A DNA stretch of 64,000 nt from an uncultured Chitinophaga sp. Lineage in GTDB: Bacteria; Bacteroidota; Bacteroidia; Chitinophagales; LD1. Shown in pieces: positions 7,866-47,324 of this stretch (positions within the stretch are counted from its first letter, which is position 1; the number at the start of each line of letters is the position of its first letter). Below the pieces are notes generated by a model that ran no database searches, was not told the origin of the DNA, and worked only from the letters and a program-made list of their open reading frames with translations. Made by a program: the position numbers and the translations under genes. The stretch spans positions 124-64,123 of the forward strand of contig CAZBPG010000003.1 of assembly GCA_964493695.1 (NCBI GenBank), given 5' to 3'.

Positions 7866-8885
7866 ATGGCAAGAAAAGTTCGGGTTGGAGTATTTGGTGT
7901 TGGTCACCTCGGCAAAATTCACGTAAAGCTTCTCAAAGAAATTTCGGGTTACGACATTACCGGTTTCTACGACCCCGATGATAAAAACGCGCACAAGGCC
8001 GAAACCGATTTTGGTATTAAGCGTTTCGATAACCCGAAGAAATTAATTGAGAGTTGCGATGCCATTGATATTGTTTCGCCCACTACCACGCATTTTCAGA
8101 TTGCTAAAGATGCCATTAAGAAAGGCAAACACATTTTTATTGAAAAGCCGCTTTCATCTACCGTAAAAGAAGCGAAGGAACTGGTGGAACTGGTGGACGA
8201 AGCCCGCGTGAAAGCCATGGTGGGCCATGTAGAGCGTTTTAATCCGGCTATTCTAAGCCTGAATAAAAAGAACATCAAGCCGATGTTTATTGAAGTGCAC
8301 CGGTTGGCGGAGTTTAATCCGCGCGGCACCGATGTTTCGGTGGTGCTTGATTTAATGATTCACGACCTCGATATTATTTTGAGCCTGGTAAAAGCCAACG
8401 TAAAAAAAGTTTCGGCCAGCGGTGTGGCTATTCTTTCCAAAAGCCCCGATATTGCCAATGCACGCATTGAGTTTGATAACGGTTGTGTGGCGAATGTTAC
8501 CGCCAGCCGCATTTCGGTGAAGAGCATGAGGAAGATGCGCATCTTTCAGCCCGGTGCTTACATCAGTATGGATTTTTTGAAAAAGAAGAGCGACCTCTTC
8601 CGCATTGAAGATGAAATGCCTTCCACCAATGGCGAGAGCAACCACTTTGAAATTGACTTGCCCGACAACACCAAAAAATACATTACTTACGAAACTGCCG
8701 AGAAGAAGGATGTAAACGCCATTCAAATGGAGCTGGAGCTTTTTCATAAATCTATTACCCAAAACAAACCGGTGCCGGTAAGTATGCTCGATGGCTACAA
8801 TGCCATGCACCTGGCGCAGAATATTCTCGATAAAATAAATGTACAGCTAACAGCCACCCCCAAACCCCCTAAAGGGGGCTTTTAA
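7866..8885 (+). CDS. Gfo/Idh/MocA family oxidoreductase
   Basis: GVFGVGHLG, FIEKP, VGHVERFNPA and DLMIHD motifs. Confidence 0.92.
   Translation: MARKVRVGVFGVGHLGKIHVKLLKEISGYDITGFYDPDDKNAHKAETDFGIKRFDNPKKLIESCDAIDIVSPTTTHFQIAKDAIKKGKHIFIEKPLSSTVKEAKELVELVDEARVKAMVGHVERFNPAILSLNKKNIKPMFIEVHRLAEFNPRGTDVSVVLDLMIHDLDIILSLVKANVKKVSASGVAILSKSPDIANARIEFDNGCVANVTASRISVKSMRKMRIFQPGAYISMDFLKKKSDLFRIEDEMPSTNGESNHFEIDLPDNTKKYITYETAEKKDVNAIQMELELFHKSITQNKPVPVSMLDGYNAMHLAQNILDKINVQLTATPKPPKGGF
8856..8881 (+). repeat. REP-like ACCCCCAAACCCCCTAAAGGGGGCTT encoding the oxidoreductase C-terminus
   Basis: Matches the reverse complement of 62714..62738 with one indel. Confidence 0.8.
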
Positions 8886-8886
8886 T

Positions 8887-8928
8887 CCTTCTCCTTTAGG
8901 AGAAGGTGCCCGTAGGGCGGATGAGGTT
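8887..8928. repeat. REP-like CCTTCTCCTTTAGGAGAAGGTGCCCGTAGGGCGGATGAGG family, copy 1
   Basis: Double hairpin; near-identical copy at 46600..46641 and a modified copy inside sucA at 20500..20551. Confidence 0.9.
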
Positions 8929-16560: not shown

Positions 16561-18111
<1,551 letters not shown>

Positions 18112-18239: not shown

Positions 18240-21020
18240 TTACTCAAACGCTCTTTTCAAAATCACCTCCTGCTCCTGCAAATGTACTTTCTTAAATCCC
18301 GTGGCCGGTGAAGCAGAATTCTTACGCGCTATACCGCGAATAGTAAGTTTATCGTTAAAGCGTGCATGAATAAAATACCAGGCACCCATGTTCTCCGGTT
18401 CTTCCTGCACCCACCATACTTCTGCTTTCGGATGCTTTTTGGTCAGCTCAATCATTTTGTCCTGTGGTACCGGATAGAGTTGCTCTACCCTTGCAATCAC
18501 CACATCGGTAATGTTATCGCGCTCTTTCCTTTCCAGCAGGTCGTAGTAAATTTTACCGGTGCAGAACAATATTTTGCGGGCCTGACTGCCGTTAGGCATG
18601 TCCTTGCCTTTCACCTCATCCACCAGCAACTCTTCAAAACTTCCTTTCAAAATATTCTCGATAGGCGAAACGCATTTAGGATGGCGCAGCAAACTCTTCG
18701 GGCTCATCACTATCAATGGTTTGCGGAAATTCCAGTGCATTTGCCTGCGAATGGCATGGAAGAAATTAGCAGGGTCAGAAATATTCACCACCACCATATT
18801 CATTTCGGCACACTGTTGTAAAAATCTTTCCAGCCGGGCGGAAGAGTGTTCCGGTCCTTGCCCCTCATAACCATGCGGCAAAAGCATCATTAATCCCGAC
18901 TGACGCTGCCATTTACTTTCACCCGATGAAATAAACTGGTCAATAATTATTTGAGCGCCATTCGTAAAATCGCCAAACTGCGCTTCCCAAATTACCAGCG
19001 ACTCCGGACTGGGCAACGAGTAACCATATTCAAAACCTAACACACCGTATTCACTCAAATGCGAATTGTAAACAAAAAACCTTCCCTGCTTTTTAGCCAG
19101 GTTACACAACCGGCAATACTCCTTGTCCGTATTCTCATCCGTAATTACCGCATGGCGGTGAGTAAACGTTCCGCGCTTCACATCTTCACCGGACAAGCGA
19201 ATATCTTTCCCTTCCAGCAAAATAGAACCGTACGCCATCAACTCGGCAGCCGCCCAGTCCAGCTTTTTTTCCTCCAGCGAAAGACGCTTTCTTTCCTCCA
19301 GATACTTCTGCACTTTTTTGAGCGGCACAAAACCATCCGGTACTTTATTCAATCCCTGCGTAAGAACTTCTGCCGTTTCTTTCGACACAAAAGTTTCGGG
19401 CGATTTCTTGAAATCATCAATCGTTGCCTTGCCTAATTTCTCCCACGCAATTTCAGTTGGCTGTGGTTTATAGGGCAACGGATGTTGTTTCACCGAATCT
19501 AAACGCGCCTGCAGTTCTTCCCAAAACTCCTTCTCCATTTTCTTCGCCAGTTCTGCCGTTACTGCTCCCTCTGCTTCTAATTGTTTTATATAAAGGTCGC
19601 GCGGGTTAGTGTGCTTTTCAATCAACTTATACATCACCGGTTGAGTAAACTTCGGGTCATCGCTTTCGTTATGTCCCCATCTGCGATAACACACCATATC
19701 AATAAAAATATCCTTGTTGAATTGCTGACGGTATTCAGCCGCCATTTCGCAGGCAAACACCACTGCTTCAATGTCATCGCCATTCACATGCAGTACCGGT
19801 GCTTCGATAGTAGCGGCAATAGAAGTAGAATAATCTGAAGAACGCGCTTCATCAAAATCGGTAGTAAAACCTATCTGGTTATTGATAACAAAATGAATAG
19901 TACCGCCCGAATAGTAACCATCGAGTTTTGCCATCTGCAACACTTCGTAAACAATTCCTTGTCCTGCCACAGCCGCATCACCGTGAATCAGCAACGGAAG
20001 AATTTTGTTGTAATCAGACTTATAAATAGCATCAGCTTTTGCACGTGCAAAACCGGTAACTATCGGATTCACCGCTTCCAGATGCGAAGGGTTTGGCATC
20101 AGTTTCAGGTAAACATCTTTACCCCCTTCCACCGGATACTGCGAAGAAAAACCCAGGTGATACTTTACATCGCCATCGCCCATGGTTACATCGGCCTGCA
20201 CATTTCCTTCAAACTCATTGAAAATTTCTTCATAAGTTTTACTCATGATGTTCGCCAGTACATTCAACCTTCCGCGGTGCGCCATGCCAATTACCACTTC
20301 CTCTACCCCCATTGCAGCTGCTGTTTGAATAATAGCATCCAAAGCCGGTATAGCCGTTTCGCCACCCTCCAGCGAAAACCTTTTTTCGCCAACATACTTG
20401 GTGCCGAGAAATTTCTCGAACGAAACCGCCCTGTTCAATTTGCGCAGAATACGCTCCTTCTTTTCTAAAGAGAATTGAAACAACGAAGAGTTGTCTTTCC
20501 CTTCTCCTTTAGGAGAATCCCGATGGCTATCGGGACGAAGGGCGGATGAGGCTTCCGTTCTGCTCCTGAAAAAATCTATTTCATCTTTCAGCCTTACGTA
20601 ACCGGTTTCAAACCCAATGCTTCCGCAGTAAATCTTTTTAAGTTTCGCCAGAATTTCATTCAATGAAGAATCCGGCAACTCGATTTCGCTTCCAATCGAA
20701 AACCTTCTCTCCAAATCTTTTTCACTCAAACCAAAACTCTCCAACTCTAAATTGGCATGGCGGTTTTTGCGGGGTTTTATAGGATTGGTACGGGCAATTA
20801 AATGTCCCTTATTGCGGTAAGCAATAATCAGGTTGTAAACCTTAAACTCATCAGCCGAAAACGAAGACTTTTTTCCGTTGTAATTCAGCGTAGCGAAATC
20901 AAATCCCTCAAAGAATTTTTTGAAGTCTGGGTCAACAGAAGCAGGGTTTTTCCTGAAATCGTTATACAGGTTTTCAAGAAATTCGGGGGTGGCATTGGTC
21001 AAAAAAGAGTAATTATCCAT
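18240..21020 (-). CDS. sucA: 2-oxoglutarate dehydrogenase E1
   Basis: KRFSLEG, GMAHRGRLN, NPSHLE, HGDAA, WEAQFGDF and HGYEGQGPEHSSARLER motifs. Confidence 0.98.
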   Translation of the reverse strand: MDNYSFLTNATPEFLENLYNDFRKNPASVDPDFKKFFEGFDFATLNYNGKKSSFSADEFKVYNLIIAYRNKGHLIARTNPIKPRKNRHANLELESFGLSEKDLERRFSIGSEIELPDSSLNEILAKLKKIYCGSIGFETGYVRLKDEIDFFRSRTEASSALRPDSHRDSPKGEGKDNSSLFQFSLEKKERILRKLNRAVSFEKFLGTKYVGEKRFSLEGGETAIPALDAIIQTAAAMGVEEVVIGMAHRGRLNVLANIMSKTYEEIFNEFEGNVQADVTMGDGDVKYHLGFSSQYPVEGGKDVYLKLMPNPSHLEAVNPIVTGFARAKADAIYKSDYNKILPLLIHGDAAVAGQGIVYEVLQMAKLDGYYSGGTIHFVINNQIGFTTDFDEARSSDYSTSIAATIEAPVLHVNGDDIEAVVFACEMAAEYRQQFNKDIFIDMVCYRRWGHNESDDPKFTQPVMYKLIEKHTNPRDLYIKQLEAEGAVTAELAKKMEKEFWEELQARLDSVKQHPLPYKPQPTEIAWEKLGKATIDDFKKSPETFVSKETAEVLTQGLNKVPDGFVPLKKVQKYLEERKRLSLEEKKLDWAAAELMAYGSILLEGKDIRLSGEDVKRGTFTHRHAVITDENTDKEYCRLCNLAKKQGRFFVYNSHLSEYGVLGFEYGYSLPSPESLVIWEAQFGDFTNGAQIIIDQFISSGESKWQRQSGLMMLLPHGYEGQGPEHSSARLERFLQQCAEMNMVVVNISDPANFFHAIRRQMHWNFRKPLIVMSPKSLLRHPKCVSPIENILKGSFEELLVDEVKGKDMPNGSQARKILFCTGKIYYDLLERKERDNITDVVIARVEQLYPVPQDKMIELTKKHPKAEVWWVQEEPENMGAWYFIHARFNDKLTIRGIARKNSASPATGFKKVHLQEQEVILKRAFE
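20500..20551. repeat. Composite REP-like element inside sucA
   Basis: The 8887/46600 family element, with its central GGTGCC replaced by the palindrome TCCCGATGGCTATCGGGA. Confidence 0.9.
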
Positions 21021-45833: not shown

Positions 45834-46556
45834 ATGAGCAAGAAAAAAGTGCGCCTGCTGCTGAACAGCTTTGAAATACAAACCAGGCGCAGCCACAAAA
45901 AAGCAGTTTCGCTTAGTTTTGGAACTATCCGCAAACTAAGCCCGGTAACGGTGCCTGCTTTGCAGCAAATACATAACGATTACCTGCCCCATCATGAAGC
46001 GTACATCAACCTCGACACTGCGGTGGGGATGCTGGAAGGAACCTATAAGGGCAAAACAAATTCCTTTATACTTCTAATAAACAACCTGCCGGTTAAACTC
46101 CGGCAATGGGAAGCCCCTATACACACAGTTTTTATGGAAGATTCAGCGGAGGCCATAGACATATTTTCGCGCAAGCGCACTCCTTTTTATGTGGGCACGT
46201 ATGAGCAGCGGCTAATGGCTATTCGTGTGCTGCGCAATAAACTGGCAGAATATATTGCTGCTTACCCTGCACTGGCACCGGTGCAGACAGATGTAGCCAC
46301 TTATTGCACACTGGCAGAAACTGCGCGCAGTTTGCAGCAAGGCAAAGAAGGCAACCTGGGCGAATTGCGGACCCTTCGCGAAGCTCAGCGCGTTGCTACT
46401 ATGAATGCTTATTGGGGAATAGTGTACTGTGGTTTAATGAGGCAGTTTTATACCAACCCTGCAGAGGTAGCCGCCTTTATTGAGTTTGAACTGTTGTATG
46501 AAAAAGAAAAAGAGGAAGAGGAAGGTGATGAAGGGCTAACCGGTGCCATAGTTTAA
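45834..46556 (+). CDS. Hypothetical helical protein (240 aa) downstream of the 41-bp array
   Basis: Intact ORF with an acidic tail; no signal peptide or recognisable catalytic motif. Confidence 0.75.
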   Translation: MSKKKVRLLLNSFEIQTRRSHKKAVSLSFGTIRKLSPVTVPALQQIHNDYLPHHEAYINLDTAVGMLEGTYKGKTNSFILLINNLPVKLRQWEAPIHTVFMEDSAEAIDIFSRKRTPFYVGTYEQRLMAIRVLRNKLAEYIAAYPALAPVQTDVATYCTLAETARSLQQGKEGNLGELRTLREAQRVATMNAYWGIVYCGLMRQFYTNPAEVAAFIEFELLYEKEKEEEEGDEGLTGAIV

Positions 46557-46599: not shown

Positions 46600-46641
46600 C
46601 CTTCTCCTTTAGGAAAAGGTGCCCGAAGGGCGGATGAGGTT
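46600..46641. repeat. REP-like element of the 8887 family, between convergent genes
   Basis: CCTTCTCCTTTAGGAAAAGGTGCCCGAAGGGCGGATGAGGTT; two substitutions relative to 8887..8928. Confidence 0.9.
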
Positions 46642-47324
46642 TACTCCGAAATAATCCTCACTTCCGTCCTCCGGTTCTTTTGCTTACCGGTGGCGGTAGC
46701 GTTATCAGCCACCGGTTGGGTATCGCCATAACCTTTGGCGGTCACCCGCTCCGGTGCAATGCCTTTCTTCTTCAGGTATTCTTTCACCGCGTTGGCCCGG
46801 TCTTCCGAAAGTTTTTGATTGGCCTCTACTACACCCACATTATCGGTATGTCCGGCAATTTCAATAAACAAAGCCTTCTTCAGGCTCATGTATTCCGCCA
46901 GTTCATTCAGTTCTCTGTTCGATTCTGCCCGCAGGCTTGCTTTTCCTGAATCAAAAAACACATTATCCAGCGTAAACGATTTAGGCGGAGTGGCGGTAAT
47001 GGTATACTCAAACGTATAAGGATCGGCAGCCGAAGGCATGTCAAGCACCAGGTCGCTCTCTACGGTGGTGAAGATTTTGTATTTCACCTTATACTTCTGT
47101 GCCGGTGGTATCAGCATCTGGAATTTACCGGTGGCATCTGTCTTACCGGTGAACTCCTTTCCGTCTTTAATAGAAGTAAAAGTTACCGCCTGATTCGCCT
47201 GCGGTTTGTTTTTATCATCAATCACCATCACTTTCAATAAAGCCTGTGTGGCGGTGGGTTTAAGTTCCTGTGCCTGGAGTTGTGCAGCAATAAATACAAA
47301 GGCGAATAAGAATAGGTTTTGCAT
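46641..47324 (-). CDS. OmpA family protein with an N-terminal carboxypeptidase-regulatory-like domain
   Basis: Signal peptide; FDSGKA, GHTDNVG, LSEDRA, GYGDTQP and NRRTE motifs. Confidence 0.93.
   Translation of the reverse strand: MQNLFLFAFVFIAAQLQAQELKPTATQALLKVMVIDDKNKPQANQAVTFTSIKDGKEFTGKTDATGKFQMLIPPAQKYKVKYKIFTTVESDLVLDMPSAADPYTFEYTITATPPKSFTLDNVFFDSGKASLRAESNRELNELAEYMSLKKALFIEIAGHTDNVGVVEANQKLSEDRANAVKEYLKKKGIAPERVTAKGYGDTQPVADNATATGKQKNRRTEVRIISE

Follow-up and report, generated by a model that had tools for sequence, protein, structure and literature searches.

A putative BoxC-type triplex repeat in frame in sucA of an uncultured Chitinophaga species and the exchange of its centre for a second dispersed palindrome

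How does a dispersed DNA repeat come to lie in frame within a conserved housekeeping gene, and what becomes of it there? The question is raised by a stretch of 64,000 nucleotides (nt) from an uncultured Chitinophaga sp. (contig CAZBPG010000003.1; referred to here as the window), in which sucA, the gene for 2-oxoglutarate dehydrogenase E1, carries a copy of a short repeat whose centre has in turn been exchanged for a different palindrome. Triplex-motif repeats of the BoxC type have been known since the 1990s; to our knowledge, their function and means of spread have never been explained, and we know of in-frame palindromic repeats in housekeeping genes mainly from Rickettsia. The two themes meet at this locus, where a triplex-type repeat is written into several core proteins of a free-living member of Bacteroidota and where sucA offers a series of empty site, canonical insert and remodelled insert. 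The explanation favoured here, which is considered very likely, is that a passenger repeat of the triplex type was inserted into sucA before this species and its sister species parted, that its centre was swapped later, and that it has been tolerated within a loop of the protein.

The insert in sucA and its age

The source genome of the window (G000; 4.24 Mb in 198 contigs) carries sucA in the middle of a 113-kb contig, C3. Four Pfam domains (2-oxogl_dehyd_N, E1_dh, Transket_pyr and OxoGdeHyase_C) are found on the open reading frame (ORF) of 926 amino acids, which is therefore SucA (E1o), and the protein matches E. coli SucA (2JGD) with an E-value of 1e-227. A preliminary description of the window had reported a repeat within a repeat inside this gene, and the sequence that it gave is correct. 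Positions 20500-20551 of the forward strand read CCTTCTCCTTTAGGAGAA-TCCCGATGGCTATCGGGA-CGAAGGGCGGATGAGG, and the two copies with which they were compared (Table 1) read CCTTCTCCTTTAGGA(G/A)AA-GGTGCC-CG(T/A)AGGGCGGATGAGG. In a pattern search, the left 18-mer had three forward matches at no more than three mismatches where 0.04 were expected, and the right 16-mer had three matches where 0.31 were expected; the repeat matches are therefore not due to chance. Both comparison copies do lie between genes, next to stop codons that are within 2 nt of one end of each copy (window 8883-8887 and 46639-46643). The placement inside SucA holds as well, with the predicted peptide SSALRPDSHRDSPKGEG at residues 158-174. 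The pyrimidine-purine-purine strand of the sucA copy is the forward strand, antisense to the gene, and the copy is recovered as an nhmmer match at C3:20614-20677 (E = 7e-9).

The gap that had been predicted in orthologues is present, although its length was underestimated: 19 residues (ASSALRPDSHRDSPKGEGK), or 57 nt, are missing, not 17 residues or 52 nt, the additional nucleotides being CTTTC, a common 5' extension of the element. All 27 SucA relatives that were aligned (17 congeners and representatives of 10 other families of the order) lack the 19 residues, the gap in the codon alignment is exactly 57 nt, and in the alignment with E. coli SucA (2JGD) the insert falls in a gap between A193 and T194. 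In a second search of the genus, 35 other genomes gave a match, and 34 of them have the empty site.

The age of the insert can be read from its closest relatives. When a large protein collection was searched with SucA residues 110-230 only, one close SucA was recovered (P0002, 916 amino acids), together with a cluster mate (P0122) encoded on eight contigs, and both read ...RSRTEASSALRAPSPKGEGKDS... at the insert. The DNA that encodes P0002 (contig L091) is 84.8% identical to the G000 sucA and has the canonical 45-nt element at precisely this site and with the same junctions, so that the two elements differ in having GGTGCC or the 18-nt palindrome and in nothing else. This allele is the sucA of species G051, with no mismatches over 52 nt. 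In a SucA tree built without the insert columns, G000 is sister to P0002 and P0122 (that is, to G051) with a support of 0.99, and the next clade (P0123, P0125 = G050) has the empty site. Its presence in canonical form in the sister species makes the insertion ancestral and the exchange of GGTGCC a later event, in place; the swap of 6 for 18 nt with the frame kept (+12 nt), which had been proposed from the window by itself, is thereby borne out. The most economical history is an empty site, a canonical insertion of 45 nt in the common ancestor and a replacement of the centre (+12 nt) in the G000 lineage.

On these alignments, a 45-nt member of a dispersed family must have entered sucA in frame in the common ancestor of G000 and G051. 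The landing site is an A-rich stretch coding for a loop between two helices in the N-terminal part of SucA. In the G000 lineage, GGTGCC, made up of the purine arm's final GG and one half (5') of a mini-hairpin, must later have given way to an 18-nt palindrome of a second dispersed family. Because this replacement added 12 nt, the frame survived and the insert is now 19 amino acids long. The tryptic peptide predicted to span it is TEASSALRPDSHR, and its G051 counterpart contains ASSALRAPSPK.

Tolerance of the insert in a housekeeping protein, also put forward in the preliminary description, agrees with the data on selection and with the predicted structure. Between G000 and G051, sucA has a synonymous divergence (dS) of 1.08 and a ratio of nonsynonymous to synonymous divergence (dN/dS) of 0.038, and the insert-bearing gene therefore stayed under strong purifying selection. 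In an AlphaFold2 (AF2) model built from a 36-sequence alignment, residues 162-177 are predicted to be coil with a predicted local distance difference test score (pLDDT) below 50, flanked by predicted helices at 145-155 and 185-204 in which blocks of ten residues average 83-88. The insert would thus be a coil between two confidently modelled helices, at the place where the E. coli protein has its gap. It would add a loop without visible harm to the gene, which is presumably translated into an active enzyme. The peptide may be a passenger in a disordered surface loop, with no function of its own, and selection would keep only those copies that are in frame, free of stop codons and located in loops. 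Such a filter would explain why the in-gene copies of this subfamily share one reading frame and why the same loops are hit repeatedly.

Table 1. Features of the sucA insert, comparison copies in the window and related copies in other genes of the source genome. Positions without a contig prefix refer to the window.
Feature	Position	Strand	Remarks
sucA (2-oxoglutarate dehydrogenase E1)	18240..21020	-	926 amino acids, intact; ORF list, translation, Pfam
Canonical intergenic copy	8887..8926	+	Begins 2 nt past the stop codon of ORF 7866-8885 (+)
Canonical intergenic copy	46600..46639	+	Between convergent ORFs 45834-46556 (+) and 46641-47324 (-)
Whole in-frame insert	20495..20551	+	57 nt, 19 codons, residues 157-175; position ambiguous by 1 nt; codon alignment with 8 congeners, DNA alignment with G050, G051 and others
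CTTTC, usual 5' extension of the element	20495..20499	+	GAAAG on the coding strand; many copies preceded by (T)TTC
Pyrimidine arm CCTTCTCC	20500..20507	+	Y arm of hairpin 1 and of the putative triplex motif
Loop 1, TTTA	20508..20511	+	TTTA, TTCG, TGTT or TTAG across copies
Truncated purine arm GGAGAA	20512..20517	+	Canonical form GGAGAAGG, final GG lost in the swap; compared with canonical copies and the G051 orthologue
Nested 18-nt palindrome TCCCGATGGCTATCGGGA	20518..20535	+	7-bp arms, 4-nt centre; replaces GGTGCC; encodes PDSHRD
CGAAGGGC	20536..20543	+	Orphaned 3' half of the canonical loop-2 mini-hairpin GCCCGAAGGGC
GGATGAGG, putative third-strand (reverse-Hoogsteen) tract	20544..20551	+	Mirror image of GGAGAAGG with one A replaced by T; mirror test, three-way covariation
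AsnB-type asparagine synthase	C3:85015-86973		12-amino-acid gap in 13 relatives
Mfd	C13:20690-24178		25-amino-acid insert, common to G011 in diverged form
Cas1	C8:19168-20145		Copy common to G033
GpmI, sister-subfamily copy	C126:753-782		8-amino-acid gap in 14 relatives
LeuS, sister-subfamily copy	C66:6522-6553		Net 5 amino acids in a variable region
BCKDH E1 fusion, sister-subfamily copy	C18:8908-8937		ORF context only
CoxL-like protein, sister-subfamily copy	C107:8154-8183		ORF context only

A dispersed triplex-type element and its nested palindrome

The repeat that entered sucA belongs to a family that is dispersed over the source genome and the genus. An nhmmer search found 38 copies at E < 1e-3 in G000, and the 28-nt core occurs 24 times there and one to seven times in each of 14 of the 39 other species of the genus, where controls with the reversed pattern gave none. 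The sequence of the element is identical across species whose SucA differs by 10-25%. Copies start with (T)TTC-CCTTCTCC, continue with a variable first loop, the purine arm GGAGAAGG and a variable middle, and finish with the tail GGATGAGG. Four copies or variants, including a tandem fusion (…AGATGAGGCAGAGAAGGTGCCCGTAGGGCGGATGAGG), lie within about 350 nt at C51:25738-26091.

The tail mirrors the purine arm except that a T stands for one A, and an allowed triad is therefore available at every position: CCTTCTCC, GGAGAAGG and GGATGAGG give eight of eight allowed purine-motif triads (G.G-C, A.A-T and T.A-T), six of which are kept in the G000 sucA copy. This mirror symmetry extends beyond the family. 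The genome has 129 pyrimidine-purine hairpins with perfect arms; 44 of them are accompanied within 45 nt downstream by a perfect mirror third tract, and three upstream, and for hairpins with asymmetric arms a mirror third tract was found 39 times versus 14 times for a direct one. A tolerant scan gave about 125 triplex motifs in the genome, in several subfamilies whose three tracts change together. In seven other species, three-way covariation is seen at two triads, one changing from T-A.T to C-G.G (CCTTCTCC/GGAGAAGG/GGATGAGG to CCTCCTCC/GGAGGAGG/GGAGGAGG) and the other from C-G.G to T-A.A (the same three tracts to TCTTCTCC/GGAGAAGA/AGATGAGG). Symmetry and covariation identify the host element as a predicted class II purine-motif intrastrand triplex motif of the BoxC, TM-ECO or PIT kind.

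The variable middle of the element is the second loop of this predicted motif, and it serves as a cassette. Both loops are less conserved than the stems across copies, and the lengths of loop 2 form three classes (3-4, 10-14 and 20-27 nt), with contents such as GCCCGAAGGGC, GTCCGAAGGAC, GCCGAAGGC, TCTCGGCTTAGCCGAGA, TTCCGCTGCTTTGAGCGGGA or GCTCCGCGCAGCGGAGC. The same loop-2 hairpins are found between different arms. An exchange of hairpin cassettes had been suggested from the sucA copy, and it is now seen as a property of the host family, in which one position holds hairpins of differing sequence and length.

A role as RNA was also considered. At the gathering score, Rfam matched only tRNAs in the window, and a permissive scan (E up to 10) around the copy at 8887 gave nothing credible. 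When folded as RNA, the element forms ordinary hairpins with z-scores of -0.3 to -4.3, and the mRNA-sense strand reaches about -20 kcal/mol. Purine-motif triplexes do not form in RNA and are a DNA structure (PMC4666352), and this, together with the mirror symmetry, leads to the view that the element acts as DNA rather than as RNA. With no Rfam match, ordinary folds and a mirror symmetry that points to DNA, the reading as a structured-RNA gene was rejected, and the ideas of a hammerhead-like core and of an attenuator were dropped along with it.

The palindrome that now occupies the centre of the sucA copy has a distribution of its own. The 18-mer has one other near copy in G000 (C87:3728-3745, 17 of 18 positions identical) and exact copies in two other species (G031:C5:34138 and G044:C39:21079). 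The palindrome TCCCGATAGCYATCGGGA is found across the genus, in 29 of 39 other species and with as many as about 15 loci in a genome, as compared with 0-1 for controls. As judged from 20 sampled loci (L099-L118), TCCCGATAGCTATCGGGA is a dispersed palindrome family that resides mostly in the loops of other hairpin or triplex repeats. Three types of site are seen. In triplex motifs the palindrome separates the purine arm from the tail (as in CCTTCTCCTTCGGAG-palindrome-TAGGATGAGG, a composite that also occurs in the opposite orientation), in simple pyrimidine-purine hairpins it takes up the apical loop, and in a third group it lies inside hairpins of the GTCATYCTGAGC...GAAGGATC type. The nested and modular character of the repeat that had been described from one locus is therefore found again elsewhere, with the palindrome forming its own family mostly inside other repeats; the sucA case is one instance of its general habit of nesting. 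In G035, one nested palindrome composite is present twice. A literature search for the repeat sequences themselves gave no match, and a palindrome resident chiefly within other repeats seems not to have been described before.

Copies in other genes, target sites and candidate enzymes

The sucA copy is not the only one within a gene. The element is also present in AsnB, Mfd and Cas1, again in frame and antisense, and is read there in the frame used in sucA (SSALRAPSPKGEG); copies of sister subfamilies are found in GpmI and LeuS and, by ORF context only, in two further genes (Table 1). Three of the six frames of the element are open, and in one of these the antisense reading of the canonical element gives a hydrophilic predicted peptide rich in Ser, Pro and Gly (ASSALRAPSPKGEGK). 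The Cas1 copy has the same junction of GGAGAAGG with GAAAG as the sucA copy. About 20 of the roughly 125 triplex motifs of the genome lie inside ORFs of at least 250 amino acids, others of these being in contigs C50, C10 and C11.

Some sites have been hit more than once. The Cas1 loop holds an element of the CCTTCTCC type in G000 and G033 and a triplex motif of the CCCCTCTCC type in G009, and a single site in Mfd has inserts in four species (G000, G011, G009 and G006); L032, L033, L038, L075 and L076 are among the loci compared for the two genes. Either permissive loops or preferred targets could account for these repeated hits. Comparison of empty with filled sites in sucA, asnB, mfd and cas1 shows A-rich targets such as GAAAAG and CAAAAAC.

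The enzyme that may mobilise the repeats was sought among two groups of genes. None of the seven Y1_Tnp genes of G000 is flanked by the element, each being flanked by its own distinct hairpins, and none of 28 Y1_Tnp matches in five palindrome-rich genomes is flanked by the palindrome. A reading of the repeats as a REP/RAYT system was rejected, since none of these Y1_Tnp genes is bracketed by the element or by the nested palindrome. Y1_Tnp (RAYT/IS200-like) genes with hairpins of their own lie at C180:2156-2494, C84:9160-9504, C61:23545-23889, C32:22124-22327 and C11:42465-42674; since each has its own distinct hairpins, several independent REP-like systems would exist in G000 besides the triplex motifs. 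The other group comprises three genes for DUF559 proteins (Vsr-like endonucleases). Two of the three, at C171:3331-3672 and C50:26014-26331, are tightly bracketed, on both sides or on one side, by two-sided composites of triplex motifs (C171:3252-3779 and C50:25805-26331), and the third (C9:52354-52680) has inverted GTCCCCCTTTGAAGGGGGCAGAC hairpins around it. The arrangement is a clue rather than proof that a homing or gene-conversion-like process tied to small DUF559 genes copies the repeats.

Competing explanations and known systems

Several observations weigh against a neutral passenger that was inherited from a common ancestor and received its centre from another repeat family. Across the 12 element codons shared by G000 and G051, there are no synonymous differences where 5.7 are expected at a proportion of synonymous differences (pS) of 0.57 (P ~2e-4), and a purely neutral passenger does not predict this. 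Possible causes are DNA-level constraint, gene conversion from other copies, or independent site-specific insertion or re-insertion. The nested variant is known from one assembly and was absent from the other public contigs searched with exact and junction patterns (JGI metagenomes and GTDB representatives, where its own genome may be masked), and scans of JGI metagenomes and GTDB representative genomes found no donor copy with the same junctions. At the four genes with in-frame copies there is no clean target-site duplication, a possible one of 2-5 nt being inconsistent between sites. The repeats that flank the DUF559 genes belong to other subfamilies than the sucA element, the formation of a triplex is deduced from the symmetry of the tracts, and the AF2 model is of moderate quality overall (mean pLDDT 70).

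The missing synonymous differences bear on two of the alternatives. The copies in G000 and G051 could have been inserted independently, or been refreshed repeatedly, at a site-specific hot spot instead of descending passively from one old insertion, and besides the contrast between 12 unchanged codons and a gene-wide dS of 1.08, this would fit the two triplex-motif subfamilies in the same Cas1 loop of different species and the inserts of four species at the same Mfd site. The halves of the element lie in two of the six longest identical runs (29 and 26 nt) between the two sucA genes. However, the junctions in the two sister species are identical to the base and the outgroup has an empty site, the Cas1 and Mfd copies that are shared between species have, unlike the sucA copy, diverged at ordinary rates, and frequent conversion should have erased the nested palindrome; refreshed insertion is accordingly judged improbable. 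The insert could also be adaptive, with the loop altering the regulation or complex assembly of SucA, or with a DNA or mRNA structure modulating replication, transcription or translation. Perfect conservation at synonymous sites, retention over a dS of about 1 and the folding energy of the mRNA-sense strand can be cited for such a role. It is nevertheless quite improbable, given that 34 congeners and all other families searched do without the insert, that the same peptide is inserted in unrelated proteins, that the centre was replaced and two triads were lost without consequence, and that the AF2 model suggests disorder.

Two further alternatives concern the nested palindrome. It might have been made locally, by template switching or hairpin-templated repair within the CCC...GGG mini-hairpin, and resemble the dispersed family by convergence. 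The old and the new centre both have CCC/GGG cores, the sucA junctions are unlike those of nested composites in other genomes, G000 has only one other copy (C87:3728), which differs by 1 nt, and TM-ECO loci are reported to be prone to rearrangement (PMC4666352). A match of 17 in 18 positions to the family consensus is, however, unlikely to arise by chance (about 0.007 per genome, a rough estimate), the exact 18-mer occurs in two other species, and elsewhere the palindrome repeatedly takes the same relative position between purine arm and tail (L101, L103, L106 and L108), so that there is little reason to expect a local origin. An assembly artefact, in which the insert or only the nested 18-mer stems from misassembled repeat reads of a metagenome-assembled genome, might be suspected from the 198 contigs, the single record of the exact SucA protein and a nested junction that was found nowhere else; it is very improbable, because the canonical insertion was assembled independently in at least eight contigs encoding P0122 and in G051, the variant adds exactly 12 nt and leaves the 926-residue frame open in the middle of a 113-kb contig, and repeat collapse would not give a chimera with clean junctions inside a unique gene. 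An ancestral passenger insertion with a later change of centre remains the explanation preferred here.

This explanation can be placed among known repeat systems. BoxC, PIT and TM-ECO repeats occur in E. coli, other Proteobacteria and Cyanobacteria (Hoyne and Maher 2000; Holder et al. 2015, PMC4666352). Their class II motif comprises pyrimidine, purine and reverse-Hoogsteen purine tracts, the third being antiparallel to the purine arm, with G.G, A.A and T.A triads, and the TM-ECO consensus is CCCTCNCCC-N3-6-GGGNGAGGG-N3-GGGNGAGGG, with 9-nt stems and a second loop of 3 nt (PMC4666352). The Chitinophaga element has the same order of 5' pyrimidine tract, loop, purine tract, loop and mirror purine tract. 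It is likewise a short, dispersed, multi-copy repeat with highly conserved copies and with stems more conserved than loops, has no link to a transposon and varies sharply in copy number between close relatives. Other subfamilies of G000 (CCCTCTCC TTC GGAGAGGG TTA GGGAGAGG) come near the TM-ECO pattern. In contrast, the element itself departs from the consensus, with 8-nt stems of a different sequence, a host in Bacteroidota and, as its second loop, a mini-hairpin of 12-13 nt that is exchangeable for hairpins of up to about 27 nt. In E. coli K-12, TM-ECO is reported to be always intergenic (PMC4666352), whereas the element described here also lies in frame inside conserved genes. By its predicted architecture, it is of the same kind as TM-ECO but not of the same sequence family.

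The in-frame copies have their closest parallel in the Rickettsia palindromic elements (RPEs; RPE-1 to RPE-10), which are about 100-150 bp long and lie in frame in genes (Ogata et al. 2000, Science; Ogata et al. 2002; summarised in PMC10969869). Both are palindromic dispersed repeats that occur in frame in unrelated housekeeping genes, are absent from orthologues and also have intergenic copies; peptides inserted by RPEs lie in loops at the protein surface and are compatible with the fold, for which the coil predicted in SucA may be a counterpart, and no mobilising enzyme is known for RPEs either. The element differs in its length of 45-57 nt, its triplex architecture and its host, a free-living member of Chitinophagales with a 4.2-Mb genome, while RPEs form Rickettsia-specific sequence families in the reduced genomes of intracellular bacteria. 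A repeat nested in a repeat is seen here and does not belong to the RPE description in the account cited. By analogy, the element seems to work like an RPE, but it is not a member of that group. REP sequences and REPINs (RAYT; PMC3733652, PMC6006769) are similar in being short imperfect palindromes of 20-40 nt in many copies, often clustered and at gene ends, and the genome has seven Y1_Tnp-like genes. Unlike them, the element has no GTAG or CGTC head and no cognate Y1 gene, and a third mirror tract is not a REP feature. [quoted passage not shown] Compared with MITEs as cited there, no terminal inverted repeats matching an insertion sequence and no clear target-site duplication were seen at the loci studied here, and the element is far shorter.

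Beyond the preliminary description, the present analysis adds that the element reads as a hairpin-bridged triplex motif of the BoxC type, that the canonical copy in an orthologue provides a date for the swap, and that the phenomenon is genome-wide and RPE-like. Insertions of this sort offer selfish DNA a simple route by which loops can be added to proteins. Because conserved genes provide the exact pre-insertion sequence together with a molecular clock, target choice, junctions, turnover and possible conversion become directly testable. A bolder view, tentative and on present evidence rather unlikely, is that the triplex-motif repeats of the genus are a living modular system at the DNA level, in which loops act as landing pads for an inserting TCCCGATAGCTATCGGGA module and homing or gene conversion, to which the DUF559 Vsr-like endonucleases may contribute, holds the copies identical, those in essential genes included. 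If this were true, the dated empty and filled sites would constitute a record, at base resolution, of the spread of BoxC-class repeats.

Two minor observations concern sucA and its surroundings. The ORF downstream of the gene (16561-18078, reverse strand) encodes a subunit of the ATP synthase alpha/beta family, not sucB; sucA is therefore not part of a sucAB operon here, and an argument from operon context was dropped. SucA also has a second small insertion at residues 807-812 (DMPNGS; window 18585-18602) that 17 congeners and G051 lack. Nothing pointed to a repeat as the source of DMPNGS, and another lineage (P0124) carries the related insertion AVPDGR.

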